The notes: generated from the letters alone by a model not told the origin. A stretch of 64,000 nucleotides of DNA from Calditrichia bacterium (GCA_050633245.1 JBOEGD010000022.1:32001-96000), one strand, 5' to 3'. Positions 9,935 through 64,000 are shown, numbered from the stretch's first letter. Numbers and translations: made by a program.

Positions 9935-10011
9935 GCGATTCTCCATGCAAGTGTGATGCTGAAAACTAGGAAGTTGTCTATGCAGAAGCAATGGGGGAGA
10001 TTACAAAAATA

Positions 10012-21535: not shown

Positions 21536-21740
21536 AAGTGATCCTTTCGGTAGTATTCAAACAATGTGAGTAACTCTGTTCGATGTCCGTCAATGTAAGC
21601 GAAACGCTGCAATATGCCAAGAGATTCTGAGGCATTGCGAATGAGAATCTGTAAGACAAGATGTTGATTTTGTATATTATCTGCTGCATAATGTAGCATA
21701 CATCTTACCCTTTCAAATAATGAACCACTCGGAGAGCTTT

Positions 21741-24060: not shown

Positions 24061-24154
24061 TGCCTATCCTTTCAACGAATACTTTTATTGCCTGAAACGA
24101 AATTTATTCCGTGGTTGATCGCGAGCGAATAAATCTCCTCGCGGAACTATGTGT

Positions 24155-41547: not shown

Positions 41548-41650
41548 CTATAATACATATCTGAATTATGTTCCATTTTTGCTCCGAGTCTGAGGAGGCT
41601 CTCACTGTAAGCTGTTAACCGTGTCTTTATTACCAATAGGATCCAACTTT

Positions 41651-47006: not shown

Positions 47007-47235
47007 TGTTTCCTCCTAATAAATAGACAGTAATAAAAGTGAATAGTTTCGATCATTCGATTATACATACCCCTTTAGGAAGCTTAAAGAATTCAATGTC
47101 CTTTCGCAATTTGAAAATGAAACAGATCGCAGGATTCGTTATCGCGGTCTCTTTAATAAATTTCGATTTACTTCTGGTTAAACAGTGACGAACTTGTACA
47201 GAGAGAACACATTCGCAACGGCTGAGAGTTCGCCT

Positions 47236-48654
47236 ATGTCACGTAAAACGCTTCACTTGTTCATATCATTCTCTATTCCCCTGGCTGTACTTTTTATACC
47301 TGCCTCCATGATTCCGATTGAGGGTTTAACTCTTATTGAACAGCGGGTTATGGCTATCTTTGTAATGGCGACATTGCTGTGGATTTTGGAGCCGATTCCG
47401 ATCTTTTCTACTTCAGTGCTTATTATTCTTTTGGAATTGGTCGTTTTGTCGAACAAGAGCTTTATTCTTTTTCAGAATACTTCAGCAGCAGCCGATTTCG
47501 GCAGGGTCATTCCCTATGAACAGATAATGGCTACATTTGCTTCGCCCATTATTCTGCTGTTTCTGGGTGGTTTTTTCCTGGCTATGGCAGCAACAAAATA
47601 TCGTCTCGACGTAAACTTGGCGAGAGTTCTGCTGCGTCCATTCGGCGTGCGTCCCAAATGGGTGTTGCTTGGTTTGATGACCATTACCGCAGTGTTCTCA
47701 ATGTTTATGAGTAACACTGCAACTACCGCTATGATGCTGGCGTTGCTAACTCCGATACTTGCTGCCTTTGATGCAAACGACGGCGGTAAAAATGCCTTTG
47801 TATTGGGTATTCCCTTTGCCGCGAATGTGGGTGGAATTGGAACACCTATTGGAACACCGCCAAACGCAGTTGCTCTGAAGTATTTGAGTGGTGAAAATGC
47901 TATCGGGTTCGGAAGCTGGATGACGTTTGCCGTGCCATTTGTAATCGTGTTACTGTTTTTTACCTGGTTCTTATTATTGCACTTTTTTCCACCGTCAGCG
48001 CCTGAACTTAGAATGGAAATAAAAGGTTCATTCCTGAAAAACCGTAAAGCTTTGGTTGTCTACGGCACGTTTATTTTGACAATCCTGCTTTGGTTAACCG
48101 ACGCCTTTCACGGAATGAATTCCTATATCGTCGCCTTAATCCCGGTTGCTGTTTTTACCACTACCGGGATTATTACCACGGCAGATATGAAGCGAATCAG
48201 TTGGGATGTGCTGTGGCTTGTCTCCGGTGGTATCGCGCTGGGGATGGCTTTGGAGGAAAGTGGATTAGCTGCAAACCTCATTCGGAGTATTCCTTTTGAG
48301 GCCTTTCCGGCATTATCTATAGTTTTTATTACTACTCTGATCGCAATTGTCATGGCTACATTTATGAGTAATACTGCTACGGCGAATTTATTGCTGCCCA
48401 TCGTCGCCGCTTTGGGAGTAAGCCTGGGAGGGCTTGAGCCATTGGGAGGTAGTAAAATGATACTGCTCGGCGTTACCTTCGCATGTTCACTGGCGATGTC
48501 TCTGGTCATAAGTACGCCACCTAATGCGATGGCACAAGCTACCGGCCTCATTGAAAGTCGTTCGATGATGAAAAGCGGCATAATTATAGGTGTCGTGGGG
48601 CTGTGTGAAGTATATGCAATGCTTTATATCTTAAAACAGGTTGGTTTCCTGTAA
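47236..48654 (+). CDS. SLC13/DASS family anion transporter
   Basis: SMFMSNTAT, GTPIGTPPN, TFMSNTATAN and STPPNA motifs; many TM segments. Confidence 0.93.
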   Translation: MSRKTLHLFISFSIPLAVLFIPASMIPIEGLTLIEQRVMAIFVMATLLWILEPIPIFSTSVLIILLELVVLSNKSFILFQNTSAAADFGRVIPYEQIMATFASPIILLFLGGFFLAMAATKYRLDVNLARVLLRPFGVRPKWVLLGLMTITAVFSMFMSNTATTAMMLALLTPILAAFDANDGGKNAFVLGIPFAANVGGIGTPIGTPPNAVALKYLSGENAIGFGSWMTFAVPFVIVLLFFTWFLLLHFFPPSAPELRMEIKGSFLKNRKALVVYGTFILTILLWLTDAFHGMNSYIVALIPVAVFTTTGIITTADMKRISWDVLWLVSGGIALGMALEESGLAANLIRSIPFEAFPALSIVFITTLIAIVMATFMSNTATANLLLPIVAALGVSLGGLEPLGGSKMILLGVTFACSLAMSLVISTPPNAMAQATGLIESRSMMKSGIIIGVVGLCEVYAMLYILKQVGFL

Positions 48655-50009
48655 TGAAAAACTTTTATCAAAATCTGAATATGAACGTGTTGATCAGCGT
48701 CTATTTTACGAATCCGGAAAAGAGGCTGACGTTGAAGAAAGGCGACTGCCTGATGCGCCAGGGAGGAAAGAATAATCGACTCTATCTGGTTCTGGAGGGA
48801 GAATTATCCGGGCAGGTGAAGGGGCCTGAAGACAGCTCATTGGAATTGTTTCGCGTGGCGCCGGGTATGTTTGCCGGGGTTCACAGCTTTTTTTCACGAT
48901 CCTATATAAGCAGCACCACTATTACAGCCTTGAAAAACAGTCTTGTTGCTTATATCGATCAACATCAACAAGCCTACGAGAGTGAGCAGAGTGAAAGCCT
49001 TTTCGAGCAGTTCATGCCGGTAGTTGTAGGTGACCTTGCCTATCGGCAGCAGCTTGCGCACAAAATGTCTGTTGAAAAGCAGCAGGCGTTGAAACAGGTG
49101 ATCGAGTCAGAAAAGTTAGCATCGCTTGGGCAAATGGCCGCTGGAATTGCCCATGAGTTGAATAATGCAGCTGCCGTTTTACAGCGAAATACCCACTGGT
49201 TGTCTGAACAGCTTGCGGGCATGTTTTCGCAGGATCACCCGCGGGTGTACCCGTTTTACGAGAGCGGCAGAAGCAAAGGTCGAAGTCTTTCGACACGAGA
49301 GATACGCCACCGCCGTAAGGAGCTGCAAAAACGCTATCGCCTCTCCGATGATGTCTACCGAATTGTATCGGAGACTGAGGTCCCGGATAGTATGCTGCCG
49401 GAATCGGAGGCAGATCTGGCCGAAAATGCGGTTAATATGAACAGATTCTGGGAAATCGGCGCAACACTTCATGGGATGCAGCTTGCTGCTGATCATGCTG
49501 CTCATGTTGCACGTTCGGTAAAAACGCTGGGTGCGCCCAGCTCGGCACGGCAACCCGATCAAGATGTCCCCGAAACAATTCGACAGGCTCTTACATTATT
49601 GCATCACCCATTGCGGCAGGTCAGCGTTTCCACTCACCTTGCACCGGTCCCCGGCATTACGGCAAATAAGGGGGAGTTAGTGCAAATCTGGGTCAACTTA
49701 ATCCGAAATGCCTGTGAAAGCTTGAAGCAGAGCCGTGCAGAAACCCGGCAAATCGATATTTTAGTTGAAGCGAGTCGAACGTTTTTGACAGTGAGAATTC
49801 AGGATAACGGTCCCGGTATAGCCCCCGAGCTATTGCCGACTATCTTTCAACCCAATGTAACGACCAAGGTCGATGGATTGTCCTTTGGTCTGGGTCTGGG
49901 TTTAAGTATTGTGCAGCGTCTGGTTGAGAGCTATGGTGGATCGATTACCGCGGAAAGTTCTAAAACACACACTGTATTTCAAGTAAGGTTTCCTTTGAAG
50001 GTGATTTAA
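48654..50009 (+). CDS. Cytoplasmic histidine kinase with N-terminal cNMP-binding domain
   Basis: LKKGD.LMRQG...LYLVLEG; AGIAHELNN, NLIRNA, DNGPGI and GLGLGLSI motifs; TAATG overlap with the transporter gene. Confidence 0.92.
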   Translation: MKNFYQNLNMNVLISVYFTNPEKRLTLKKGDCLMRQGGKNNRLYLVLEGELSGQVKGPEDSSLELFRVAPGMFAGVHSFFSRSYISSTTITALKNSLVAYIDQHQQAYESEQSESLFEQFMPVVVGDLAYRQQLAHKMSVEKQQALKQVIESEKLASLGQMAAGIAHELNNAAAVLQRNTHWLSEQLAGMFSQDHPRVYPFYESGRSKGRSLSTREIRHRRKELQKRYRLSDDVYRIVSETEVPDSMLPESEADLAENAVNMNRFWEIGATLHGMQLAADHAAHVARSVKTLGAPSSARQPDQDVPETIRQALTLLHHPLRQVSVSTHLAPVPGITANKGELVQIWVNLIRNACESLKQSRAETRQIDILVEASRTFLTVRIQDNGPGIAPELLPTIFQPNVTTKVDGLSFGLGLGLSIVQRLVESYGGSITAESSKTHTVFQVRFPLKVI

Positions 50010-50019
50010 AAAGCGAGGT

Positions 50020-50508
50020 ATGCAGATGGAAAAACCTGAAATTATTTGCATTGATGATCAGCGTGAGATTTTGGCGGCATTAGCAAAGGACCTCGAACCG
50101 CTGAGATCGCATTTTTCCCTCACATTCTGCGAGTCTGCGAATGAGGCAGAAGAGGTTATTGATGAGTTTGATGCTGAAGGAAAGCCCATTGCGCTAATCC
50201 TTTGTGATCATGTTATGCCCGGAAAGAACGGCGTGGATTTTATGATTGACTTAAATAAGCAAGCTCGATTTTCAACGCTAAAAAAGATTCTTCTAACTGG
50301 TCAGGCGACACATCGTGACACGATAGTCGCAATAAACGAAGCGGCAATCGACCGCTATATTGAAAAGCCCTGGAAGCAAGATGATCTATTGAAAGCGATC
50401 CGTGTTCTGATAACGGAATTTCTATTCCATTCCGGGAATGTTTATCAGACTTACATTGAACAGCTCGATCAGCAGACCCTTTATCGGTTGTTGCGCAAAA
50501 ATTCCTGA
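50020..50508 (+). CDS. Single-domain response regulator
   Basis: ICIDD, CDHVMPG, LTG and EKPW motifs. Confidence 0.93.
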   Translation: MQMEKPEIICIDDQREILAALAKDLEPLRSHFSLTFCESANEAEEVIDEFDAEGKPIALILCDHVMPGKNGVDFMIDLNKQARFSTLKKILLTGQATHRDTIVAINEAAIDRYIEKPWKQDDLLKAIRVLITEFLFHSGNVYQTYIEQLDQQTLYRLLRKNS

Positions 50509-50628
50509 TTGAATAAACCCGGTATCTGAACAGGAAAAACAATCACCTTGGAAAGAAATCGGGGATTCGATATATTTTGCTTCCTTAGTGCCGTATTCAA
50601 AAACATCTGTTTAGTGGAGACATATAAT

Positions 50629-53600
50629 ATGGGACGTTTGTCCATCCTGCTTTTGCTATTGCCTTTTTGGGCCGTGGCTCAAGATCACCTGCTTATTTCT
50701 GAAGTTGTTGTCACACCGACTATCGGTGAATATGTCGAGATCCATAATCCGACTGCTTCCGCCATTGATTTGACGGATTATTATCTTACCGACGCAACGT
50801 TCGCAACCAACTCAGCTTATTACTACAACATTGTGACTGGTGCTGATGCCGGTGGTGGAACGTTTGGCGACTGGCTGGCTCGTTTTCCTGCCGGTGCATC
50901 CATACCCGCTGGTGCTTATCAGACGATTGCAATGAATGGGGCTGATTTTCAGACGGCCTATGGACAATCTCCTACCTACGAATTGTTTGATGTCTCTTCA
51001 GCAGCTGATATGCTTGAAGGTTTACCGGGTTCGGTAAATAGTCAGGGTGGGTTGACCAATAGCGGTGAAGTCGCGATACTTTTTCAGTGGGATGGCGTTA
51101 GTGATCTGGTTGCTGATGTCGACTATGTCGTTTGGGGAGATAAAGTTGAGGGTGTCGACAAAACGGGTGTTTCTATTGACGGCCCGGATGCCGATTCCGA
51201 TGTTTCAACGTATCTAGATGATGTTTCCATTGCCAATCAAATTGCAACCTCTGGTGGTCAGCCGCATAACGATGGTGAGTCTATTCAGCGTTTTGCAGCG
51301 ACAGAAACTGACGAAATTACATCCGGTGGAAACGGAATTACCGGTAACAATGAGATGAGCGAGAATCTTGGTTCCTCCTTTATAACCGCGGTAGTAACAC
51401 CTAATGCCGGGCCGCCTGCTTCAGATGCTCCGCAGATTAACAATGTGATGCGCAGTCCGGCTAATCCCAGCACCGAAGATGTCGTCACAATTACTGCTAC
51501 GGTTACCGATGATGTGAGTCTTGTCAGCACCCGACTATTTACTTCTATTGCCGGTGCGGCTTTTGACAGCACCGATATGGCGAACACCAGTGGCGATGAA
51601 TTCAGCGCAATGATTCCGATTCAAGCCGAAGGCGTAGAAGTTCAGTATTTTATAAAAGCACGAGATGGTGATAATCTTACTTCTTTGTCTGCAACAACCG
51701 CCTATACCGTTATCGCACCACTACAGGTGGTGCCGATTGCCGACATTCAGGCCAACCCTGGCAATTTTACCACTGTTCTTGTTGAAGCTATTGTTACTGT
51801 TGGTGCCGGGCGATTGATAACAACTCGAACGGATACCTATGTTCAGGATGCCTCCGGCCGTGGTATTAACGTATTCAGTTTTGATGAGCCAACCGTTCCA
51901 CCGAATGATTTGCTGGTGCGTGGGAATGCGGTACGCGTTACCGGAACGGTGGAAGAGTTCAACGGTATTACCGAGATTACCAACTATACGATTGAAGTAA
52001 CCTCTACCGGGAATGCAGTTCCGGACGCGCTGGTGCTTACTACTCAGGCAGCAGGGAACACCGCTCTTGAAGGAACACTGATTGAAACATCCGGATCAAT
52101 AACCGATATTTCTGCGTTTGCCGATGCTGCAAACATTACTATCGATGATGGCAGCGGCAGTGTAACGGTACGCGTTTGGGCAACAACCGGCATTGATGTA
52201 ACAGGCTTGGCTGTGAATGATGAAATTACCGTTCGCGCAGTCATGGATTTATTTAACGATACGGCGCAGTTGGTGCCCGCATATAATGATGACCTGCAGG
52301 TTGCCGGACAGAATCCCGGCGATGGCAGCGGTAGCGCTTCTATAACACCGGATAGTGTTGCTACGTCAGAAGCGACCTCAGCAATGGTTAGCATTAATGG
52401 TGAAGGAATGTTTTCGTTGGAAAGCGTTTCCGTACGCGTTCCGCAGAGTTGGAGCTGGACCAATAGCGTCGGAGATGTCCAGCTTGCTGGCAGTGGGTTT
52501 TCCGGTGCAACAGTTGACGTGCTTGGCAGTGTGATTAGCATTAGCGGAGCATCGGTGACAGATCTTTCTGCCGGGACGATTACGATTAATAGTTTAACTG
52601 CACCTGCAACAGACGAGACGTCTGAATTTCAGGTTCGCACCGCGACTGCAGGGGGTACGCTAATTTCAATATCAGCTTCTCCCAAAATAATCGTTGGTGC
52701 CGGTGGCTTACCGTCTACGCCAATTGCCGATATTCAGGCAAACCCGAGTGGTTTTTCAACAGTGACAATTCAGGGTGTGGTTACTCAGGGCGCCGGTGTA
52801 ACGATCGGAACACGAACCGATGCTTATGTTCAGGACGCCTCAGGACGTGGTATTAACGTGTTTAGCTTTGATGAGCCGACAATTCCGCCAAATGACTTGT
52901 TGGTACGAGGAAATGTCCTTCGACTTACCGGAACGATCGAAGAATTTAATGGCGTTACTGAGTTGACAAATTATTCTGCCGAATTAGTTTCCACCGGTAA
53001 TCCAATTGTAGATCCTCTGGTGATTTCGACGCAAATTGCCGGTGATGTTACACTGGAAGGAACCTACGTTCAGGTCACCGGAATTGTGAACGATATTGTC
53101 CCTGGTTTGGGTGGCGGAACCAATATTGACCTGAATGACGGCAGCGGAGAAGTAACCATCCGCGTTTGGGATGCGACCAATATTAATCTGGCATTTATCT
53201 CACAAGATGATACTATCACCGTCCGCGGTGTGATCGACATCTTCGATAACGATACGCAGGTATCGCCTGGCTATCAGGATGAAATTACAATTTTTGGAAG
53301 TGGCTCTGCGGGTGACGGTAGCGGTTTCGCATCGATCTCTCCAGACACAGCAAGTATTGATGCTGCTCTTGATGTTACCCTGAAGATTTGGGGCAATTTG
53401 TCCGATACGCTTGAAACGGCGAAGATCACTGTGCCGTACAATTGGGCATGGAGTGGGCAGGAAAGTGCGGTAACGGTTACTGGTAGTGGTGCTGCCGGTG
53501 CTTCTGTTCAAATTCTTCGCGAATTCGATGAGCTGTTTGTTGAAATCTCCGGAGCAGCTATTACCGGACAAGATACAGCTTATGTCGCGATCTCCGGGCT

Positions 53601-54648
53601 TACCGCCCCAGATCTATCTGTTTACTCGTATTTTTGGATTCGTACTGCGTCAGCCGGTGGAACCCCTTTCTTTATTGCAGAAAGTCCTCGCATTCAAGTT
53701 GGCAATGAACCGATTCATCAAATGCGCGATATTCAAACCTACTCCGCTCAGTTTACGGGGGACGTTACCTTGCGTGGTGTTGTCACTATTGCCGATAACG
53801 TCATCCGAACAGATCGCACTTCAGCATATTTTCAAGACTTTTCCGGCTTTGGAATTAATATTAACGATGGTCAGGCACCGGGTGGACGTTTTCCGCGTGG
53901 TGCTGGAATTGAGATAACGGGTGGTATTTCTGTCTTTGGAGAAACGACACAGATTGCACCGAGCACGGTTACGAGTATTACCGGACTTCCTGATATTACA
54001 CCTATTTCGCTTTCATCTGGCGATGCTGCAAGTCCACGTTATGATGGAACGCTTATTGAAGTCTCCGGTGTGGTAGTTGATAAGTTTACGACCTCGAGTA
54101 TTCCGCCACTGGATTTTAACGTTGTGTTGAATGATGGAACCGGTGAGTTGACGGCACGAATTTGGTCTACTACCGGAATTAATCTGGATTCAATAAACGT
54201 CAATGATGCAGCAATTATCAGCGGTATTGGCGATGTGTTTGTCAATAATAGCGGCGTGCGTAGCTATCAGGTGGTGCCGGGATATCAGGATCAACTGGCA
54301 CTCGATCCGAACTTTCAGCCGACATTGGCTGGAGTTAGCCTTAGCACGCCACCAAATCCATTTGTACCGACCCTTGGTGAAACGATCGACATTTCCTATA
54401 ATGCCGGATCTGTTGCAAACCGAACTGTGGTGCGAATTTTTGACCTGGGTGGACGATTAGTAACAACGCTTCTCGACGAAGAGGCCTCTCTGATTCAGAA
54501 TGTTTTGGAATGGGATGGTCGGGATCGCTTTTTTAATCGCGTGCCGCTTGGTGCCTACATTTGTCATCTGGAAGTCGTTGAGCCGGTAACCGGTAAAAAA
54601 GAGCAGCGTACTGCCCCGATTGTTGTTGGTACAGTGCTGAGTCGTTAG
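50629..54648 (+). CDS. Large secreted protein: lamin-tail domain, Ig-like domains, three tandem double-OB-fold modules, FlgD/T9SS type B-like CTD
   Basis: LLISEV...EYVEIHNPT..AIDLTDYYL (LTD); repeated PIADIQ...YVQDASGRGINVF...GTVEEFNG.TE and EGT...DDGSG.VTVRVW; CTD PNPFVP...RIFDLGGRLV...WDGRD...GAY. GGAG RBS. Confidence 0.82.
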   Translation: MGRLSILLLLLPFWAVAQDHLLISEVVVTPTIGEYVEIHNPTASAIDLTDYYLTDATFATNSAYYYNIVTGADAGGGTFGDWLARFPAGASIPAGAYQTIAMNGADFQTAYGQSPTYELFDVSSAADMLEGLPGSVNSQGGLTNSGEVAILFQWDGVSDLVADVDYVVWGDKVEGVDKTGVSIDGPDADSDVSTYLDDVSIANQIATSGGQPHNDGESIQRFAATETDEITSGGNGITGNNEMSENLGSSFITAVVTPNAGPPASDAPQINNVMRSPANPSTEDVVTITATVTDDVSLVSTRLFTSIAGAAFDSTDMANTSGDEFSAMIPIQAEGVEVQYFIKARDGDNLTSLSATTAYTVIAPLQVVPIADIQANPGNFTTVLVEAIVTVGAGRLITTRTDTYVQDASGRGINVFSFDEPTVPPNDLLVRGNAVRVTGTVEEFNGITEITNYTIEVTSTGNAVPDALVLTTQAAGNTALEGTLIETSGSITDISAFADAANITIDDGSGSVTVRVWATTGIDVTGLAVNDEITVRAVMDLFNDTAQLVPAYNDDLQVAGQNPGDGSGSASITPDSVATSEATSAMVSINGEGMFSLESVSVRVPQSWSWTNSVGDVQLAGSGFSGATVDVLGSVISISGASVTDLSAGTITINSLTAPATDETSEFQVRTATAGGTLISISASPKIIVGAGGLPSTPIADIQANPSGFSTVTIQGVVTQGAGVTIGTRTDAYVQDASGRGINVFSFDEPTIPPNDLLVRGNVLRLTGTIEEFNGVTELTNYSAELVSTGNPIVDPLVISTQIAGDVTLEGTYVQVTGIVNDIVPGLGGGTNIDLNDGSGEVTIRVWDATNINLAFISQDDTITVRGVIDIFDNDTQVSPGYQDEITIFGSGSAGDGSGFASISPDTASIDAALDVTLKIWGNLSDTLETAKITVPYNWAWSGQESAVTVTGSGAAGASVQILREFDELFVEISGAAITGQDTAYVAISGLTAPDLSVYSYFWIRTASAGGTPFFIAESPRIQVGNEPIHQMRDIQTYSAQFTGDVTLRGVVTIADNVIRTDRTSAYFQDFSGFGININDGQAPGGRFPRGAGIEITGGISVFGETTQIAPSTVTSITGLPDITPISLSSGDAASPRYDGTLIEVSGVVVDKFTTSSIPPLDFNVVLNDGTGELTARIWSTTGINLDSINVNDAAIISGIGDVFVNNSGVRSYQVVPGYQDQLALDPNFQPTLAGVSLSTPPNPFVPTLGETIDISYNAGSVANRTVVRIFDLGGRLVTTLLDEEASLIQNVLEWDGRDRFFNRVPLGAYICHLEVVEPVTGKKEQRTAPIVVGTVLSR

Positions 54649-54759
54649 AAGCTAGAGGTAAGAGGCAAGACGTGACCCCGCGTCAGGCTGAGCGAAGGCG
54701 AAGCCAGAGCGACGAAAAAAGAAAATATCTGTTAACGATCTATAAAAGGACGAAAGTCG

Positions 54760-55656
54760 ATGAAAAAAGCCGAAACCACTTATTTGCGGAGAATCCTATT
54801 AAGCTGCAGCATTTTGCTGATGCTTTCTCTGCAGATCCAGGCTGGACTATTTGATGACCGCTACCCAAGCGCCCGCGCGATGGGAATGGGCGGATCGGGT
54901 GTTGCAGATGCTCATGGTGTCTGGTCTGCCTACTACAACCCTGCCAGTCTTAGTCGTCAGGATAACCTTCAGCTTGGTAGCGCCTATACGCGTCCATTCA
55001 ATCAGAAGTTCTTTCGCAACTTCTTTGGTGGTGGTGCAGCTGCAATCAACCCTCGATTTGGTGGCGTTGCCGTAGCTTTCGAATACTTCGGTGTTGATAA
55101 TCAGAGTCAAAACCTGTCCGGCGAATATACTTTGGCGCTGTCCCACGGCTTTCATCTCTTAAAGGATGTGCACAGCTCTCTATCGTTTGGCTATTCGTTG
55201 AAAGGTTACCATTACTCCCTGGGAACGTCGGTTGATGGCCTTGAGTTGGGAAGCACGACAACGTTGGGTGTCGATATGGGATTCCAGGCTTCGATCTTTG
55301 GGCGCACGCATATTGGTGTTTATTTGCTGAACATGAACTCACCACAAATCGGTGAAGGCAGCAAAGAAGAATTACCGCAGCGCTTGATGGCAGGCATTTC
55401 CTACAAGCCGTATGATGGTGTTACAACCAGCCTGGATTTTAATCGACAGCTACAGTCTAACGACACGGAAGTTTGGGCAGGAGCAGAATTTCGCGTTTTC
55501 GACTATGTGTTGCTTCGCTTTGGCGGCACAAGTAACCCGAACCGCTTCTCAGCAGGAGTTGGACTCGATCTCCAGCAAATTTCAATTGATTACGGTATGC
55601 GAACGCATAGTGATCTTGGTGAAACGCATCTTATCGGATTAAGCTACGATTTCTAA
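54760..55656 (+). CDS. PorV/PorQ-like outer-membrane beta-barrel
   Basis: Signal peptide; SARAMGMGG and YYNPASL motifs; HSDLGETHLIGLSYDF C-terminus. Confidence 0.8.
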   Translation: MKKAETTYLRRILLSCSILLMLSLQIQAGLFDDRYPSARAMGMGGSGVADAHGVWSAYYNPASLSRQDNLQLGSAYTRPFNQKFFRNFFGGGAAAINPRFGGVAVAFEYFGVDNQSQNLSGEYTLALSHGFHLLKDVHSSLSFGYSLKGYHYSLGTSVDGLELGSTTTLGVDMGFQASIFGRTHIGVYLLNMNSPQIGEGSKEELPQRLMAGISYKPYDGVTTSLDFNRQLQSNDTEVWAGAEFRVFDYVLLRFGGTSNPNRFSAGVGLDLQQISIDYGMRTHSDLGETHLIGLSYDF

Positions 55657-55671
55657 AAAACCAATCGGACA

Positions 55672-58317
55672 ATGACCGAAATGAGTAAATTGAGACAAAA
55701 AAATATGAGTATCGCCCGGCAAAACGATCGCTTTGGTTTTATGCGTTCTCTGATTTGTGTGCTGCTGTGTGCCTTTTGCATAACCTCGCTTTATGCGCAG
55801 TCGGATTCTTATTCATCCGAAAATCAGCTCGACATCAACAATGCGACCTACGAGGAGATTGTAAAGCTGCCCGTGTCTCTGGCTATTGCCGAACGACTAT
55901 ATGAACGCATTCAGCGTAGCGGGCCGTTTACAAGTATCTTTGAGCTGCGTGAAATAGAAGGTATTAGTCAACGCGTTCTTTTGCGATTGAAACCGCTTGT
56001 TCGCATTGAGCCTTATGTCGCGCAAACCGAGCGAGAAAGTCGTATCGAAAACCTTTATGTAAAGCTGGATCGTTGGAGTGGCCGTGAAGGCACCAATCAG
56101 GCACTGGTAGACTCCTGGATTGAACAGGCACTTGAACCGGTAGATGTAAATACGATTAGCTTTGGTGAGCTACTGAATCTGCAGGGAGTTTCACCCGTAG
56201 ATGCCGCTGCAATTATCAATTATCGCAATGAAGTGGGTAAAATATCCAGTGCTCGCGATATGCGTAGTATTCCATACCTATCCTACTTTGGCTATCGCAA
56301 TGCCCGCGACTTCCTAAGCTTTAGCGAAAATCAGAAGAAGCGTGAGTTTCACGGTTCAATTCGCTTCCGGTCTACAAATACACCGTTCTTTAGCGAAGAA
56401 GCCGAAGCCGGTGAAGATCTGGATTTACCTGCCGGTCAGGCAAACGATTATCCCGATTATTACACTCGCTTTGTTGGTAATATTGGCTCTGATATCAAAA
56501 TTGGCTATTCATTCTGGCATGCGTTGGAAGAACCGGTTCTTAGCTACGACATCGCTGGTCTGGAAATTCCGCGTGCCAAATGGTATGTAGGTCTAGAAGA
56601 CAAGAGCTGGGGTGCACTAAAGCTCAAGAAATTTTATGTTGGAAACTACTCGCTGGCATTTGGCGAAGGAATCGTTATGGAAAACACCGATTTCTTTACA
56701 CCGCGTAAGACCGGCTTTGGCTTTCGTAAGCGTTTTATCGGCTTGTCTGGCGATAATTCCCGTACGCGTCAGTATAAACTGACCGGCGCAGCAGCACAGT
56801 TTGGAATCGGCAAAGCTCACTTGTATCTCTTTGGCTCCTTCGATCAACGCGATGCCATTCTTGGCCGCGAGCCGATTCTTGTCGGTGCTGAGGGCGAAGA
56901 AGAACTAATCAATCCGGTGAGCCATTTAATTGTGCTCGATCAGCGTTTCGAATATGCCCCTGATGACTCTGCCCGCATCCGCGCCGAGCTGCCGTGGCGA
57001 GATTCCGTGAAGGAATTGACCTATGGTTTTCACACTGCTTATGACATTCTGCCAACGACGCAGCTTGGCTTTACCTACTATGAGAGCGCTTACGACCGTC
57101 CGTTAAGACCGCCAACCACCGCCGAAGAAAGTGCCGACATTGTACTGCCTGCTGAAACACGCCAGATTGATTTCCCCGATAATGAAATCTTTAACTCTTA
57201 CGGCGGCCGCGTCTCTGATGGAGAGAATCCGTTCTGGAGTGAAGCAAAAGCTTTCCGTCGCGTCTATGGACTTGATTTCCGCTCGGTTTATGAGAATGTC
57301 TCTTTTCAAGCCGAATATGGAGAGCTTGATACCGGTGAAGGGCTTTCTCTTTTTGGAGCCAGTGGAGACAATCCCTGGGCCTTTACCGCCAGTGCCTATG
57401 TGCAGTACAATAATTTTAACTTCATGGGGCTGTATCGCAATTATCAGATAGGCTTCGACAATCCCTATCAGCGATCGTTCTCCAACTATCGCCGCTTTAA
57501 ACGCGGGGTATATGAAGACTATTTCTACCTGCAGTCCGGCCTGTATGGCCAGTTGTATTCAAACAATCCGCAGCCACAGGCCGAAGAAGGATTCTATTTT
57601 CTCACTCGCTATCAGGTGAACCGCAAAACCACACTGACTGTTGAATACGATAACTGGTTGCGCAATGCCGATGATGTGCCACAGTATCGCCTTCGTGGCA
57701 CTCTGCAATTCCGACCGATTTTCCCGATAGATATTTCGTTACGTCAGAAGTATCAGGGACGCGAAGTACAGAACAATCAAAGCATTGAATATTTTGAAAA
57801 TCTGGAGTTTCGCGGCCGGGTGCGCTTTCGCCTGTCCCGCTTTAATAGTCTGAGCATTGACTATGGAAGTAATGCTGTAAAATTCCGCCCACGTCCGCGC
57901 CTGTTTTTTGGTACGGAGCCGGGATCAGAAACCGGACAGGATAACCTGGCTGGAAATGCCGCTATTGACGGTGAATTTCTCGGTGGAAACTATACACACA
58001 ATTTTAATGAATGGCTGAAAGTTAGTGGTGGACTCGTCTACTATCGCGGCTTTTACTGGACCTTTGAAGATACCCAATTCCTGGTGCTCGACAGCGATCG
58101 CGGTGCCATGCGATATTGGACCTCCTTCTATTCGCGTATCAGTAACCAGCTAAGCATGCGTTTAAAGTATTCACGTGATCGTCAGGCCGTTGGAACGTTT
58201 GCACAAACACGCGAGACGAATAATGATCCGGTTATTGAACCCGGCGTTGCCACAGAAGCCGACTACATTCAGGGTAAACAAGATGTCTTTTATCTCGAGC
58301 TTAATTACAATTTCTAA
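55672..58317 (+). CDS. ComEA-like helix-hairpin-helix domains fused to an outer-membrane beta-barrel
   Basis: Two HhH blocks (LDINNATYEE...GPFTSIFELREIEGIS and VDVNT.SFGELLNLQGVS...IINYRN..GKI); aromatic-rich barrel ending LNYNF. Start may be 55741. Confidence 0.82.
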   Translation: MTEMSKLRQKNMSIARQNDRFGFMRSLICVLLCAFCITSLYAQSDSYSSENQLDINNATYEEIVKLPVSLAIAERLYERIQRSGPFTSIFELREIEGISQRVLLRLKPLVRIEPYVAQTERESRIENLYVKLDRWSGREGTNQALVDSWIEQALEPVDVNTISFGELLNLQGVSPVDAAAIINYRNEVGKISSARDMRSIPYLSYFGYRNARDFLSFSENQKKREFHGSIRFRSTNTPFFSEEAEAGEDLDLPAGQANDYPDYYTRFVGNIGSDIKIGYSFWHALEEPVLSYDIAGLEIPRAKWYVGLEDKSWGALKLKKFYVGNYSLAFGEGIVMENTDFFTPRKTGFGFRKRFIGLSGDNSRTRQYKLTGAAAQFGIGKAHLYLFGSFDQRDAILGREPILVGAEGEEELINPVSHLIVLDQRFEYAPDDSARIRAELPWRDSVKELTYGFHTAYDILPTTQLGFTYYESAYDRPLRPPTTAEESADIVLPAETRQIDFPDNEIFNSYGGRVSDGENPFWSEAKAFRRVYGLDFRSVYENVSFQAEYGELDTGEGLSLFGASGDNPWAFTASAYVQYNNFNFMGLYRNYQIGFDNPYQRSFSNYRRFKRGVYEDYFYLQSGLYGQLYSNNPQPQAEEGFYFLTRYQVNRKTTLTVEYDNWLRNADDVPQYRLRGTLQFRPIFPIDISLRQKYQGREVQNNQSIEYFENLEFRGRVRFRLSRFNSLSIDYGSNAVKFRPRPRLFFGTEPGSETGQDNLAGNAAIDGEFLGGNYTHNFNEWLKVSGGLVYYRGFYWTFEDTQFLVLDSDRGAMRYWTSFYSRISNQLSMRLKYSRDRQAVGTFAQTRETNNDPVIEPGVATEADYIQGKQDVFYLELNYNF

Positions 58318-58333
58318 TCAGGAGACGGCTACT

Positions 58334-59608
58334 ATGCGTCATATCCTTTGCGCCTTTATTTGTTTAACTGTGCTGTCGCTAAGCAGCATTGCGCAAAACC
58401 TCACTGCTTTTCCGGTGGGAGAAAACTGGCAGTTTACCGATGCGCGTACGCTCGGTATGGCTGGAAGCGGCTCCGTCTCCAACAGTGGTGCCGGTGCGTT
58501 GCTTATGAACCCTGCAGCTTTGGGGCGTGGAAGCGGCAGAATGGAACTGTCTGTTTCAACGACTTTACGCAATATGGAAGAGCGGCGCTCATTCCCGGTG
58601 TTTAACCGCATTGATGATGTTACGACTAAAGGAATCTATGCGATAAACGATAACTGGTATGTACAGCCTCAGGGTGGTGCGCGTTATAATTTGAATCTTT
58701 CTGCGGTGCCGTTCCTGAAAGCCTTTGCGTTCGGAACCTATAATGAAGTAGATCAGGATTACAAATATCTGGAAGAAGTTCGCAGCCGGGATTTTAACGG
58801 AGAACGCTCTCCGTTGGCTTACAATCAGATTCAGTTTGAAGGCGATCTGACACGCTATAGTTTTGGAACAGCGCTTGGGCTTGGCAGCAAGCTCGATTTT
58901 GGCTTTCAATTAGGTTTCTTGAATGGCGATCTGGAGTCCAGCTCATCCGTTGACTTTCAGGCGGAAGAAAATCAGGCGAACAGCTTTCGCATACAGAACT
59001 TTCGTTCGTTAGACAATACGCCGTTGGTTGTCTCTGCTGGTGCAATTGTAGACGTTTCTCCGCAGCTGACGCTTGGTAGTCACGTTCGGCTTCCCTACAA
59101 GGTTGAATATGCCGTTTCTGTAGAAGGAACGGATGGCAGCACACCTGAGAGCTACGAATACCCGATGGCAATAAATGTCGGCATGGAATACCGCGGTCGT
59201 CAAGAGCTTCAATCCAGCCTGAATGTAGATTTCAGCTATGAGCTGTGGAGTGAAACAGAATCAACTAAAGATGGCGTTGTTTTACCTAATTTGCTGGATG
59301 ATGTCGTTACACTAAAAGGTGGAATTGAGCATATCTTCTACAATCAAATTCCACTACAGTTTGGATTACAATACCGCACCGCTTTGCAGGATCGACGTAG
59401 TAGTCGCACGCTGTTTTCTATAGGAAGTGGCTATGTAACCAAGCAGTGGCAAGTGGATGGCGCACTTGGCTTTAGCAAGCTCAGTTATACCGCTGAGGAT
59501 TTATTCGATGATGCGCTGTTTGGCGGGGATCGATCTGGTAGCCCAATCGATGATGTTGAAGAACGTTATGTCTACGGCATTATTACGCTGAAGATAAACT
59601 TCGAATAA
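58334..59608 (+). CDS. FadL/OmpP1-like outer-membrane beta-barrel
   Basis: Signal peptide from ATG 58334 (GGAG RBS); ARTLGMAG and MNPAALG motifs; beta-strand pattern. Confidence 0.72.
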   Translation: MRHILCAFICLTVLSLSSIAQNLTAFPVGENWQFTDARTLGMAGSGSVSNSGAGALLMNPAALGRGSGRMELSVSTTLRNMEERRSFPVFNRIDDVTTKGIYAINDNWYVQPQGGARYNLNLSAVPFLKAFAFGTYNEVDQDYKYLEEVRSRDFNGERSPLAYNQIQFEGDLTRYSFGTALGLGSKLDFGFQLGFLNGDLESSSSVDFQAEENQANSFRIQNFRSLDNTPLVVSAGAIVDVSPQLTLGSHVRLPYKVEYAVSVEGTDGSTPESYEYPMAINVGMEYRGRQELQSSLNVDFSYELWSETESTKDGVVLPNLLDDVVTLKGGIEHIFYNQIPLQFGLQYRTALQDRRSSRTLFSIGSGYVTKQWQVDGALGFSKLSYTAEDLFDDALFGGDRSGSPIDDVEERYVYGIITLKINFE

Positions 59609-59821
59609 TCTGTATTTATTTTGGTCGGGCGGTTTTTAAGCCTCCGCCTGGCCTGTGGCATATGCCCCAAACCCTCCTTCTTTTTGTGCTATAATCCCCA
59701 TTTCCGCTATTCTCTTCATCTCTTCCTGTTGCTGTGTGTTTTGTTTGCTGCCCTTGTTTTTATTGGGTTTAGGGTTGGCAAACCTGCCTTTTTGCTAATT
59801 GTTTTCTCTCTTTTCCCGAAT

Positions 59822-59836
59822 TGGCACAGGAATTGA
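59822..59836 (+). promoter_or_regulatory. Putative sigma54 promoter upstream of the tandem hairpins
   Basis: TGGCAC-AGGAA-TTGA; no protein-coding gene follows on this strand. Confidence 0.5.
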
Positions 59837-59860
59837 AATATATCTGGGCAGTTCATTGAA

Positions 59861-59967
59861 AGACAAGTTTCTACCTCGGCACGTTACTGCGAAAATGAAG
59901 GCAAGCTGAATGGGGCGCAGTAGTTTTGATTTTTGATTGTGTAACGTGTCGTGGCAGGAACTTCTCT
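59861..59967 (+). ncRNA. Candidate structured sRNA, copy 1
   Basis: Stem aagtttctacctcggcacgttac/gtaacgtgtcgtggcaggaactt with G-U pairs on the + strand; apical 24-mer identical to copy 2. Confidence 0.65.
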
Positions 59968-59987
59968 TGGAGATTCCAAAAGATTTT

Positions 59988-60093
59988 GCAGGAAATTCTA
60001 TCATGACACGTTTCTGATGGGTAGAGTTGGTTCAAGCTGAATGGGGCGCAGTAGTTCTGGCTTCCAGATGGACGTGTCATGATGGAAACCTGC
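59988..60093 (+). ncRNA. Candidate structured sRNA, copy 2
   Basis: Stem gcagg..ttctatcatgacacgt/acgtgtcatgatggaa.cctgc; apical CAAGCTGAATGGGGCGCAGTAGTT. Confidence 0.65.
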
Positions 60094-60101
60094 TTAATTG
60101 C

Positions 60102-60144
60102 AAAAAGAAACGCCATTGGTTCGGGTTGAGCCAATGGCGTTTCT
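60102..60144 (-). terminator. Rho-independent terminator of the SH3 lipoprotein gene
   Basis: agaaacgccattggttc/gagccaatggcgtttct stem with a U tract on the minus strand. Confidence 0.8.
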
Positions 60145-60166
60145 GCGTTCTATAATTTTTAAAGCT

Positions 60167-60928
60167 TTATTCTTCTGTGGGAAGGATGTACCAAACGCTG
60201 GAGAAATATTTGCTATCCCATTCCTTGCGCTCAAGATCGACTGAAATATTAGTCAGTAGGGTTCCACTATTCCAAATGACATGACCGCTGTTATTTTCGC
60301 TGGGTTCCTGAGTAGTGAGCTCGCATTTCTTAAGACCAGCCTTATATCCATTAACCGGCTTGAAAAAATCTACGCGAACCCGATTTACTTTGTTTTTCAG
60401 CTTATCGATAAACAGCGTAATGCCGTGCTCAACCTTCTGCTGCGATTCTGTAACGACATCCAGAACAATAACCTCGTGGCTTCCCAATCCAATATCTTTA
60501 AAGAATAGCTCGTAGGAACCACTGGTTTCCTGTCGTTTGCTACCTTGCTGAGAAAATATGTTTTGGAAGAATTCTACCGACTTGAACTTTTCTTTCTTCT
60601 GGTCCAGATAGAAATTAGGGCCATATAAGTTCAGTGCCTCATAACCCACAGATGGTGCCCAAATATAGGCCTCTTTAAAGCGCTTGTTACTAAACTGAAC
60701 CCAGTTTCCTACTCTGCGCAGAACCGTGATCTCTGCATTTTTTCGAAGCGACCCAAGGCGCTTGCCGTTTGGCAGGGCGCGTACGTTTTCAGAATTGACC
60801 TGAACCATTACAGGACGCCCGGCATCTGTTGTAAGTGATTCAGTTGGCGAGGTTGTTGGTTTTGCCGTTTTGGGCTGGCAGCCTAATAGAAAGAATGTTG
60901 CTAATATCAAGAGTAGTTGCAGCTTCAT
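60167..60928 (-). CDS. Lipoprotein with bacterial SH3-like domain
   Basis: Lipobox LLGC; NVRALP.G..LGSL..N.EITVL...GNWVQ...AYIW. Confidence 0.72.
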   Translation of the reverse strand: MKLQLLLILATFFLLGCQPKTAKPTTSPTESLTTDAGRPVMVQVNSENVRALPNGKRLGSLRKNAEITVLRRVGNWVQFSNKRFKEAYIWAPSVGYEALNLYGPNFYLDQKKEKFKSVEFFQNIFSQQGSKRQETSGSYELFFKDIGLGSHEVIVLDVVTESQQKVEHGITLFIDKLKNKVNRVRVDFFKPVNGYKAGLKKCELTTQEPSENNSGHVIWNSGTLLTNISVDLERKEWDSKYFSSVWYILPTEE

Positions 60929-62527: not shown

Positions 62528-64000
62528 ATGGTTCTTCTCCGTGTTATCGCAATACTCTTGCTGTCGGGTTTGCTGTATGGACAAACGTCCCTGCCGGAGG
62601 ATGAGGTGATCGCTGTGCAGGCGGGTGATTATTTTAGCCGACTTCAGGAGCTAAGCGAAAACCCCCTTGATATGAATAAGGCCTCGGCAAGACAGCTTCG
62701 GGACATTCCCTTTTTGAATCGAAAACTTATTTCAGCTATACTGAATTATCGCCGTAAAACAGGGGAATTTCAAACCGTTGATGAGCTGCTTCGTATTAAT
62801 GGAGTCTCCGGTGAGCTATTGGAAGCGATGCGTGCCTACCTGCAAGTTGAAGCTAAACCGAGAGCGCTAAGGCTGGTTTATGACCAGCGCCTAGCCGCTA
62901 CGGCACATAAAACGCGTGCGTATGTAAGAGATCTATATGGCAGTCGCCTTGCAATAAGACAACGCTTTTTGCTGCAAATGGAGGATCGATTTAAGTTCAT
63001 TCTCCAAACGGAAAAAGACGCTGGCGAACCAAACTGGCGAGATCACGTTTCCGGCTCGGCAGCTATTGAGTTAAGACGGTTGCACAGCCATGTTGTTTTG
63101 GGTGATTATTATGCCTGGTTTGCACAAGGCTTGATCTCAGGTGGTGCTTATGGTAAACGCCTGACTGCAGGAAGTGGGCACTCTGCTTTGATTCCGGGCA
63201 TGCTTCGAGTGCGTCAAAAAACCGGAGCGGATGAGTTCGCTTTTTTACGCGGCATTAGTTGGCAAGTTCAACCAATCGAGCCGTTGCAGCTAACCACACT
63301 GGTTTCTGTTCGCAAGCTGGATGCTGTTTTGTCAGAAGACTCTCTTACTGTTTTGCGCTTGGTGAATACGGGATTTCATCGCAGTGAGAGTGAACTGGCG
63401 CGACGTAACAGTCAAAGGGAAAAACGTCTTGCATTAGCGGCCACGCTCAATTTAAAAGCCTTCTCTATTGGCGCGCTCTATCAAATAAATCAATATTTCA
63501 AAAAGCAACAGTTTACAGGCTTAACATCTGAAGGCGGATGGAGCGGTAGCATCGCATTTTCCTATCGAACTGAAAGTTGGAAGCAGTCGGTGGAACTTGC
63601 TCGGGGAATCCGAGGCAGAGCACTAATGGCAAGTGTTGTAACACAATCTATGGGAATGCGCTTTGGTGCCGGTGTTTTTTATTATTCTCCTCTTTTTATC
63701 TCTCCCCATGGTCGGCGTTTTGGTGCATTTGGACAATCACCTGCAAATCGCTTTGGTGTTCAGCTGTTACAAAATCTTATCCTGCCGGCAGCGCTTCGCG
63801 TTAGTATTCACCTCGAGGCCGGCAGGCCGGTACAGCCCGAAGTGGCATTTCCGATTACGTCCTGGGCAGCGAGTGCGTATGCAGAGCAACGCTTTAAGCG
63901 GATCGTCTGGAAATTGCGATATAGTCAGCGCTCTTCTGGAAATGAGGAGCTTCAGCGAGACAGGCTACCGGTTCGGCGTCGATTGCGTCTGGATTTGGAA
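62528..64000 (+). CDS. ComEA-like helix-hairpin-helix + outer-membrane barrel protein (runs off the window)
   Basis: Not in the ORF track. GGAGGA RBS; MVLLRVIAILL... signal; NPLDMNKAS...IPFL...ILNYRRKTGEFQTVDELLRINGVS, then EKDAGE, LGDY...FAQGL, FLRG and TGFHRSESE. Frame spot-checked, not read in full. Confidence 0.85.
   Translation, partial: MVLLRVIAILLLSGLLYGQTSLPEDEVIAVQAGDYFSRLQELSENPLDMNKASARQLRDIPFLNRKLISAILNYRRKTGEFQTVDELLRINGVSGELLEAMRAYLQVEAKPRALRLVYDQRLAATAHKTRAYVRDLYGSRLAIRQRFLLQMEDRFKFILQTEKDAGEPNWRDHVSGSAAIELRRLHSHVVLGDYYAWFAQGLISGGAYGKRLTAGSGHSALIPGMLRVRQKTGADEFAFLRGISWQVQPIEPLQLTTLVSVRKLDAVLSEDSLTVLRLVNTGFHRSESELARRNSQREKRLALAATLNLKAFSIGALYQINQYFKKQQFTGLTSEGGWSGSIAFSYRTESWKQSVELARGIRGRALMASVVTQSMGMRFGAGVFYYSPLFISPHGRRFGAFGQSPANRFGVQLLQNLILPAALRVSIHLEAGRPVQPEVAFPITSWAASAYAEQRFKRIVWKLRYSQRSSGNEELQRDRLPVRRRLRLDLE

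Follow-up and report, generated by a model that had tools for sequence, protein, structure and literature searches.

We report a candidate outer-membrane module for the capture and utilisation of nucleic acids, encoded by four adjacent genes (G1 to G4) in a 64,000-nt stretch of a Calditrichia bacterium genome (GCA_050633245.1 JBOEGD010000022.1:32001-96000). The whole stretch is called the window hereafter, and positions are counted from its first letter. The four open reading frames (ORFs) are co-oriented on the plus strand and span positions 50629-59608. G1 is predicted to be a surface protein with a lamin-tail domain and repeated oligonucleotide/oligosaccharide-binding (OB) folds, G2 a PorV-like barrel, G3 a barrel fused to two helix-hairpin-helix (HhH) domains and G4 a FadL-family barrel. 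We consider it probable, at about 0.6, that these genes form a module linked to a secretion system of type IX (T9SS) and including no TonB-dependent transporter gene. This reading is in silico only and draws on domain content, predicted folds, gene order, neighbouring genes and a complex model. The four genes are located as follows.

50629-54648, plus strand: G1, 1339 residues from an ATG (an alternative TTG at 50548 would give 1366 residues).
54760-55656, plus strand: G2, 298 residues.
55672-58317, plus strand: G3, 881 residues.
58334-59608, plus strand: G4, 424 residues from the ATG preceding the signal peptide (the open frame starts at a GTG at 58175).

The intergenic gaps are 111 nt (G1-G2), 15 nt (G2-G3) and 16 nt (G3-G4), and each of the four products begins with a Sec-type hydrophobic signal peptide, as judged by eye on the translations. 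A scan of positions 49900-60300 for promoters and terminators returned 20 and 18 sites relative to 15.0 and 11.6 expected, which is at chance level and uninformative on operon structure. An earlier note on this DNA had described four tightly spaced co-oriented genes encoding a secreted protein of about 1340 residues with a lamin-tail domain, about six OB-like units and no nuclease motif; a PorV/PorQ-like barrel of about 300 residues, adjacent to this cargo and taken to be its own partner; a protein of about 880 residues with two ComEA-type HhH blocks; and a FadL-like barrel. It had read them as a pilus-independent system for DNA or RNA scavenging or uptake. The ORF calls, domain scans and models presented below agree with this description of the four genes, and the proposed function gains in silico support from the OB folds, the conserved gene order, the G3 barrel, the complex model and the 5'-nucleotidase and nucleases of sister clades.

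Relatives of G3 were sought in one genome per species, which yielded 233 loci, and the analysis was conducted on the best 80 of these 233. Loci L001-L061 are almost all from Calditrichota and L062-L080 are from Marinimicrobia (Neomarinimicrobiota, Fidelibacterota). We searched the window proteins against the 80 loci by tblastn, and loci were counted only if their flank was sufficient. G2 was found directly upstream of G3 in 66 of the 67 evaluable loci, G1 was upstream of G3 in 55/56 and G4 was downstream of G3 in 64/68. The four-gene order is conserved across Calditrichota and Marinimicrobia, and its recurrence in two phyla indicates that the arrangement is beyond chance.

The order of elements in G1 is a signal peptide, a lamin-tail domain (LTD), an immunoglobulin-like (Ig-like) domain, three tandem-OB modules with Ig-like spacers between them and a T9SS-type C-terminal domain (CTD). 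The elements located upstream of the CTD are listed below.

50677-51096, plus strand: lamin-tail domain, residues 17-156 (Pfam LTD, E 3.9e-10, 40.5 bits relative to a cut-off of 34.3).
51721-52308, plus strand: module 1, putative tandem OB, residues 365-560 (Pfam tRNA_anti-codon, E 8e-7 on the segment; repeat of modules 2 and 3).
52318-52698, plus strand: spacer domain 1, residues 564-690 (40% identical to residues 895-1025; no Pfam family at E <= 1).
52708-53298, plus strand: module 2, putative tandem OB, residues 694-890 (Pfam tRNA_anti-codon at 814-878, E 3e-15; 49% identical to module 1).
53311-53703, plus strand: spacer domain 2, residues 895-1025 (internal repeat of spacer 1).
53728-54297, plus strand: module 3, modelled tandem OB, HIN/SSB-like, residues 1034-1223 (AlphaFold2 and Foldseek).

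When the full-length protein was scanned, the Pfam LTD match covered residues 17-129 (E 6e-10). The three modules are about 190 residues long each and the two spacers between them, of about 130 residues, match no family. The internal repeats are extensive: residues 365-690 align to 694-1025 with 49% identity (E 5e-104) and residues 372-556 align to 1034-1223 with 32% identity (E 2e-25). Across orthologs, the length of G1 tracks the number of modules, from about 660 residues in Marinimicrobia to about 1015 or 1340 in Calditrichota and up to 1831.

We modelled residues 1030-1339 of G1 with AlphaFold2 on an alignment of 25 orthologs. The model reached a predicted local distance difference test score (pLDDT) of 91.7 and presents two five-stranded barrels followed by a seven-stranded sandwich. 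The top Foldseek match in the Protein Data Bank (PDB) was the dsDNA-bound HINab of p204 (5z7d, E 2.7e-6), followed by PorU (6za2) and PorZ (5m11), which both matched the C-terminal sandwich. Lower matches included the Taq (Thermus) SSB (2fxq), Teb1, MNDA, p202 (4jbm), the HIN domain of IFI16, RPA and POT1. The repeats of G1 are therefore predicted to adopt OB folds, and the solved structures closest to them are of proteins that bind nucleic acids. We infer that G1 holds six OB units, two per module, with module 3 modelled directly and modules 1 and 2 assigned by repeat homology. Although the solved folds nearest to the G1 module are those of HIN-200 proteins (p202, p204, IFI16, MNDA) and the tandem OB folds of SSB and RPA, identity is 7-17% among the matches listed and G1 is a bacterial secreted protein. 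The modelled likeness is one of fold only, and should not be taken as a sign of descent or of any preference between double- and single-stranded DNA.

Scans of G1 with Pfam and NCBIfam did not detect any nuclease domain, including no match to the endonuclease/exonuclease/phosphatase (EEP) domain or Exo_endo_phos. The NCBIfam model ExeM/NucH was matched by residues 407-492 at its non-catalytic positions 30-113 of 546, with 39 bits relative to a cut-off of 300. The extracellular nucleases ExeM/NucH and YhcR possess a lamin-tail domain and an OB region as G1 does, with the difference that no EEP or other nuclease domain was detected in G1.

The C-terminus of G1 was compared to a second T9SS surface protein encoded nearby. 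The two features are:

54328-54645, plus strand: G1 CTD, residues 1234-1339, a seven-stranded sandwich that bears PNPF and closes with a conserved APIVVGT.
45162-47006, minus strand: second T9SS surface protein and probable accessory, composed of LTD, DUF5689 and a type-A CTD (Pfam, NCBIfam), homologous to the G1 module and CTD.

The CTD sandwich was modelled at pLDDT above 85. It is matched by the NCBIfam PorU C-terminus (E 4e-4) and by Pfam FlgD_ig (E 0.005), it is not matched by Pfam Por_Secre_tail, and it is highly conserved across the 25 orthologs while the number of modules varies. The earlier note had considered this CTD to be unlike the NYPNPFNP CTDs of the window, a claim that did not hold: hhalign aligned the G1 module and CTD to residues 295-602 of the 45162-47006 protein with 98.9% probability, with the PNPF of G1 in register with the YPNPFNP of its neighbour. 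Since PNPF is kept and the region aligns to the neighbour's type-A CTD, the G1 CTD is a divergent relative of the window's NYPNPFNP CTDs. It is best described as a divergent type-A-like T9SS CTD, not a separate kind.

G2 matches the NCBIfam model PorV_fam over its full length (E 2.5e-18, 66.7 bits), and the same model is matched by all G2 orthologs scanned (25/25). The G2 family profile retrieved PorV (6h3i) from the PDB over the N-terminal segment only (E 4.6e-4). We then modelled mature G2 (residues 29-298) together with the G1 CTD (residues 1234-1339), using a 25-row alignment for each. The interface score (ipSAE) was 0.94 in each of three runs, relative to 0.00 for the best of three controls; at least 98% of the contacts were common to the runs and the partner pLDDT was 92. 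When the tool was calibrated, 116 of 157 solved complexes attained the mark passed by this pair, as did 2 of 215 mismatched pairs; these counts apply only roughly here because we built the alignments ourselves. The predicted contacts of G2 on the CTD include the PNPF segment (residues 1240-1246) and the last 14 residues, with the APIVVGT segment. These results support the docking of the G1 CTD on G2 in the manner of PorV and its CTD cargo.

Such pairs are known in T9SS attachment, where PorU sits on PorV and PorZ on PorQ, and type-B cargo goes with PorP/SprF barrels. In PorU-PorV and PorZ-PorQ, a C-terminal beta-sandwich is held by a barrel of the PorV/PorQ family, and the G1 CTD is predicted to dock likewise on the adjacent G2. 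In contrast to these pairs, G2 would be a small (298 residues) dedicated paralogue that scores under the curated cut-off, and its cargo is a predicted nucleic-acid binder rather than a sortase or an adhesin.

The third gene encodes a fusion of HhH domains and a barrel, with the following parts.

55816-56010, plus strand: HhH domain 1, approximately residues 49-113 (phmmer against the PDB: EEPD1 9yi2 over 49-256 and ComEA 8dss over 44-110).
56134-56316, plus strand: HhH domain 2, residues 155-215 (best Pfam HHH_3 stretch; NCBIfam comE and ComEA HhH).
56347-58314, plus strand: barrel, residues 226-881 (about 24-26 strands, C-terminal NYNF; AlphaFold2).

Two stretches of G3 match Pfam HHH_3 (65.2 bits relative to a cut-off of 27), and the region matches the ComEA structures 8dss, 8dfk and 2duy as well as the double HhH of EEPD1. 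The NCBIfam model comE gave 47.8 bits relative to a cut-off of 152. The AlphaFold2 model of G3, built with 21 homologs, is helical over residues 50-215 and forms about 24-26 strands over residues 226-881 (pLDDT 64.8, predicted template-modelling score 0.63); at the fold level, AlphaFold2 and Foldseek thus both present the C-terminal 650 residues or so as a beta-barrel. This barrel of about 660 residues matched no Pfam family at E <= 1, and when the G3 family profile was compared to PDB sequences the HhH part was matched and the barrel was found to be without a sequence relative. No Pfam match to Plug, CarboxypepD_reg or TonB_dep_Rec was detected in G2, G3 or G4.

The G3 barrel family is small by sequence: a search of 1.84 billion representatives gave 154 clusters at E <= 1e-3. 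Its homologs carry Calditrichota names, including the ortholog Calab_1208 of Caldithrix abyssi, a cultured species (43% identity). Structure-level neighbours in the ESM Atlas (TM-score 0.7-0.8) comprise proteins named as HhH or ComEA in Bacteroidota and a hypothetical family in Cloacimonadota, which we treat as leads only. G3 is also the most conserved of the four proteins (58% mean column identity over 21 sequences). The family possesses many invariant basic residues, which cluster in low-confidence loops around residues 345-366 and 596-610, and these loops could line or plug the lumen of the modelled barrel.

ComEA is a small soluble or membrane-tethered periplasmic DNA receptor that works with a type IV pilus and a secretin. 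G3 carries the same HHH_3 domains in two copies, but these constitute the N-terminus of a 660-residue barrel in a protein of 881 residues and are not stand-alone. Because the termini of outer-membrane barrels normally face the periplasm, the HhH domains of G3 are probably periplasmic. A second secreted HhH protein is encoded at 62528-64000 on the plus strand and runs past the end of the window; it presents one ComEA-type HHH_3 (residues 45-105) followed by at least 380 residues that look barrel-like by eye. It has only the HhH part in common with G3 (blastp E 1e-4) and no relative in the 80 G3 loci, and it may represent a second family of HhH-barrel fusions in this genome.

G4 is a probable member of the FadL family by way of its relatives: taken singly, the window copy is not recognised by Pfam Toluene_X (E 0.15), and 18 of the 23 G4 orthologs match this model. 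Compared to the PDB, the G4 family profile matched the structures of FadL, TbuX and TodX at 1e-7 to 4e-13, with PorV and BamG weaker. The best values were 6e-14 for the outer-membrane protein 9hiv_F, 4e-13 for TbuX and about 2e-11 for FadL. The ESM Atlas also placed G4 with clusters named DUF5723 or bearing Toluene_X (score 0.98).

We then considered the genes flanking the cluster in related genomes. A total of 105 flanking ORFs were computed in 10 loci, 60 of these were scanned with Pfam, and accessory proteins were then searched in all 80 loci. A 5'-nucleotidase (Metallophos and 5_nucleotid_C) was found on the same strand directly after G4 in 27/27 loci of clade B Calditrichota and in 15/16 loci of Marinimicrobia, which makes 42/43 for the two groups that are sisters of the window's own clade A (L001-L027 and three fragments). 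An EEP nuclease domain was found downstream in 8/16 Marinimicrobia loci and in 0/27 of clade B. The nucleotidases of related loci have a signal peptide and no CTD, two EEP proteins present lipobox-like leaders, and a T9SS CTD is located at the end of upstream LTD proteins; in L074, the upstream flank also encodes an Endonuclease I that ends in a T9SS CTD. The layout of these neighbours resembles a polymer-utilisation locus, in which binders and a nuclease act outside the cell, the polymer crosses the outer membrane and breakdown takes place in the periplasm. Some Marinimicrobia present a nucleotidase-EEP fusion after G4; in L074 (13755-15728), the N-terminus of a 5'-nucleotidase-like metallophosphoesterase is fused to a C-terminal EEP nuclease domain, and a second EEP gene comes next.

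From these results we infer a module that binds nucleic acid, has an open channel and acts as a ratchet, and its mechanism may be envisaged as follows. G1 would be exported and displayed on the cell surface, where its divergent CTD would dock onto G2 as PorU does on PorV and PorZ on PorQ. In G1, the lamin-tail domain and the three tandem-OB modules of HIN/SSB type would bind extracellular DNA or RNA along their length. The polymer, or fragments of it released by T9SS-secreted nucleases (encoded elsewhere, or next door in sister clades), would then cross the G3 barrel, and the two N-terminal ComEA-type HhH domains, probably in the periplasm, would grip incoming duplex DNA and bias its movement inward. 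G4 would be an obligate partner, maybe as a second docking barrel or as a lateral accessory of G3. In related genomes, the periplasmic 5'-nucleotidase, joined in some by nucleases, would finish the path to nucleosides and phosphate. Since the nucleotidase and the nucleases would complete the pathway in these related genomes, the main purpose of the system is most likely the scavenging of nutrients (phosphorus, nitrogen and carbon), with DNA uptake for transformation as a possible second use.

Several observations weigh against this reading. The catabolic link rests on the sister clades, because clade A presents the 5'-nucleotidase after the cluster in 0/22 loci and an EEP nuclease in 0/22, and nothing in the window matches the catalytic portion of 5'-nucleotidase, of EEP or of Endonuclease I; these counts by group depend on an assignment of clades A, B and Marinimicrobia made from hit-list order and titles, not from a tree. 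No comEC or dprA domain was found among the window ORFs scanned. The gene order has exceptions: L001, L005, L070 and L076 are without G4 by tblastn, and L019, on a complete Calditrichia chromosome (OZ245730.1, 10001-14565), carries G3 and G4 with no G1 or G2 within 10 kb upstream. This is the sole evaluable locus with G3 and G4 but without G1 and G2, and its binder and dock may be elsewhere in that genome or may have been lost. OB folds are also known in proteins that do not bind nucleic acids, and the Foldseek TM-scores of the multi-domain G1 query are modest (0.2-0.47).

The same holds for the barrels. The PorV_fam score of G2 (66.7 bits) is under the curated cut-off of 90. The success of the G2-CTD model may reflect likeness to PorV-CTD complexes that are already solved (6h3i, 8gl6), and the model is no proof that G1 prefers G2 over a housekeeping PorV or that its CTD stays uncleaved. 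The G3 model is moderate only (pLDDT 64.8), with the most conserved basic loops at low confidence, and because these loops are left unmodelled the barrel could be plugged or closed. The Foldseek matches of G3 in the PDB are generic barrels (FimD usher, siderophore receptors, maltoporin) at TM-scores of 0.2-0.3, and therefore we do not infer an usher-like or TonB-like mechanism. Finally, the periplasmic position of the HhH domains comes from general barrel topology and was not computed.

Alternatively, the four genes might constitute a machine for natural transformation as in Riemerella, with G1 capturing dsDNA, G3 passing it to the periplasm, and the HhH domains acting as ComEA does before a handover to ComEC. 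The ComEA-type HhH domains of G3, the relation of the G1 modules to DUF5689 by hhalign and the lack of the nucleotidase in the window's clade are all consistent with this scenario, and a DUF5689 protein, a barrel and an HhH protein are each essential in Riemerella (PMC8459023). Nevertheless, we did not find comEC, dprA or comF domains among the window ORFs scanned or in the 60 ORFs scanned on the flanks of 10 loci, and the conserved neighbours are degradative (the nucleotidase of the sister groups, EEP nucleases and Endonuclease I). We favour scavenging over transformation because of these degradative neighbours and because comEC and dprA are lacking in the window and the scanned flanks, and transformation as the primary role is unlikely.

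Slightly less likely again, G1 could be a surface adhesin that binds extracellular DNA in biofilm matrix or on particles and is anchored by G2, with G3 and G4 contributing to anchoring or assembly and no transport of DNA. Repeated binding modules in variable number are adhesin-like, G1 has no nuclease domain, and our models give no sign of an open lumen in G3. Yet an adhesin system gives no easy account of HhH domains fused to a barrel N-terminally. It is further disfavoured by a periplasmic-type 5'-nucleotidase right after G4 in sister clades and by G3, with its many invariant basic residues, being the most conserved member. It is also improbable that the substrate is another polyanion or polymer (polyphosphate, acidic polysaccharide or protein) and that the OB and HhH likeness is misleading. 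OB and lamin-tail domains are known with other ligands, the similarity to DNA binders is modest in TM-score, and there are weak CBM_56 and GlgE_N matches in the neighbouring LTD protein. This would, however, leave several independent nucleic-acid signals to be accounted for: HIN, SSB and RPA as top folds, HHH_3 above its cut-off, the non-catalytic likeness to ExeM/NucH and the nucleotidase and nuclease neighbours. That the genes are neighbours with no common function is already disfavoured and highly improbable, since the chance-level promoter and terminator scans are outweighed by an order kept across two phyla (55-66 of 56-68 evaluable loci), gaps of 15-111 nt and the passing complex model of the G1 CTD and G2.

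The gene of the LTD-DUF5689-CTD protein (45162-47006) lies 3.6 kb upstream of G1 on the opposite strand, and residues 198-503 of its product align to G1 module 1 (blastp E 1e-15). In related loci, a second LTD/DUF5689-type T9SS cargo gene was found beside G1 and co-oriented with it in 8/24 loci of clade B, 8/9 of Marinimicrobia and 0/15 of clade A; in clade A, it was divergent and within 1.5 kb of G1 in 4/15. Between this gene and G1, positions 47185-50508 (plus strand) encode a DASS-type Na+/sulfate-carboxylate symporter, a cyclic-nucleotide-binding histidine kinase and a single-domain response regulator. We rejected these upstream genes as part of the unit: the kinase gave weak scattered matches in 5/80 loci, and the symporter and the regulator gave none. 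Related loci do not keep them at this position, and they therefore resemble an insertion within a once-divergent pair or a lineage-specific regulator. A second candidate was rejected likewise, namely the pair formed by a 711-residue secreted protein with no Pfam family (41621-43756, plus strand) and a DUF5723 barrel (43812-45098, plus strand), which was near the cluster in 1/80 loci (L015). The N-terminal segment of this DUF5723 barrel is like those of G2 and G4.

Por_Secre_tail CTDs also occur in several other proteins of the window. T9SS cargo is common in this genome, as three more type-A CTD proteins show: a Kelch propeller (6371-7549, minus strand), a 766-residue protein with no other family (7691-9991, minus strand) and a DUF1028 protein (21720-22757, plus strand). 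An adjacent DUF1501 and DUF1800 gene pair at 22798-26068 (minus strand) has no relation to the G1-G4 locus.

In sediments and in the deep sea, the habitat of Calditrichota and Marinimicrobia, extracellular DNA forms a large store of phosphorus, nitrogen and carbon. To our knowledge, the passage of DNA across the outer membrane of Gram-negative bacteria that do not possess competence pili is largely unexplained outside recent work on Bacteroidota. The G1-G4 cluster provides a conserved parts list for what may be a second solution: a multi-OB binder displayed through the T9SS, a PorV-like dock dedicated to it, a barrel fused to ComEA domains and a FadL-like partner. It also offers a first functional hypothesis for the G3 barrel family, which matches no Pfam model, and a marker set to spot DNA-foraging organisms in metagenomes. 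If G3 does pass duplex DNA, this would bear on horizontal gene transfer in Calditrichota and Marinimicrobia.

A bolder and tentative possibility, which we consider rather doubtful at present, is that G3 founds a new class of outer-membrane DNA translocases that would pass duplex DNA with no type IV pilus, secretin or TonB, with the HhH domains, fused at its periplasmic end, acting as an in-built Brownian ratchet and the T9SS-displayed HIN-like OB array of G1 on G2 feeding it from the cell exterior. If this were true, the structural relatives in Bacteroidota and Cloacimonadota, which are leads only, would point to a general DNA entry route in the Fibrobacterota-Chlorobiota-Bacteroidota (FCB) group, used for food and possibly for gene transfer.

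Our literature searches did not find any description of the G1-G4 cluster. The earlier note had stated that no characterised system had this composition, which stands for the composition itself, but it had overlooked a functional analogue in Bacteroidota, as described in two sources. In Riemerella anatipestifer, the DUF5689 protein RA0C_RS04920, the TonB-dependent-like barrel RA0C_RS04915 and the HhH protein RA0C_RS02645 are each essential for natural transformation, based on transposon and deletion mutants, and the authors propose that dsDNA crosses the barrel independently of pili (PMC8459023). In Bacteroides thetaiotaomicron, ddbABCDEF is required for the depletion of exogenous DNA and DdbCD is needed for DNA utilisation; the transporter DdbC and the DUF5689 protein DdbD are homologs of the Riemerella pair, and DdbD, structurally similar to the HIN of p202, is the proposed DNA-binding partner of DdbC (bioRxiv 10.1101/2025.03.18.642099). 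In addition, a metagenome-assembled genome of Marinisomatota was recovered from DNA-amended enrichments, and the accessible part of that source lists no extracellular nuclease for this genome (PMC8630151).

These systems and G1-G4 have several traits in common. In both, exogenous DNA would cross the outer membrane of FCB-group bacteria without the help of pili, which for G1-G4 is proposed; both present a surface protein, with DUF5689 or, as predicted for G1, a HIN-like OB fold, adjoining an outer-membrane barrel; and both would place an HhH DNA-binding element on the periplasmic side. Pfam DUF5689 itself does not match G1 at E <= 0.01, and the relation is seen through the HIN likeness and the hhalign match to the DUF5689-bearing region of the neighbouring protein. 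The Bacteroidota systems have nucleases in the locus, whereas for G1-G4 these are found in sister clades only, with none in the window.

The differences reside in the parts. The G3 barrel, in which no Plug, CarboxypepD_reg or TonB_dep_Rec was detected, is not of the TonB-dependent transporter kind, and its HhH domains are fused to it instead of being located on a separate protein. The binder G1 is no lipoprotein and possesses a signal peptide, a T9SS CTD and a PorV-like partner of its own; binders of the G1 type carry one to three or more modules and a lamin-tail domain, and the FadL-family barrel G4 is added. Because the TonB-dependent transporter is absent, the binder is no lipoprotein and the HhH is fused to the barrel, G1-G4 does not belong with DdbCD and the Riemerella system. 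The utilisation or uptake of DNA across the outer membrane independently of pili is already known in the FCB group, and on the present comparison what is new in G1-G4 is the different outer-membrane hardware predicted to accomplish it.

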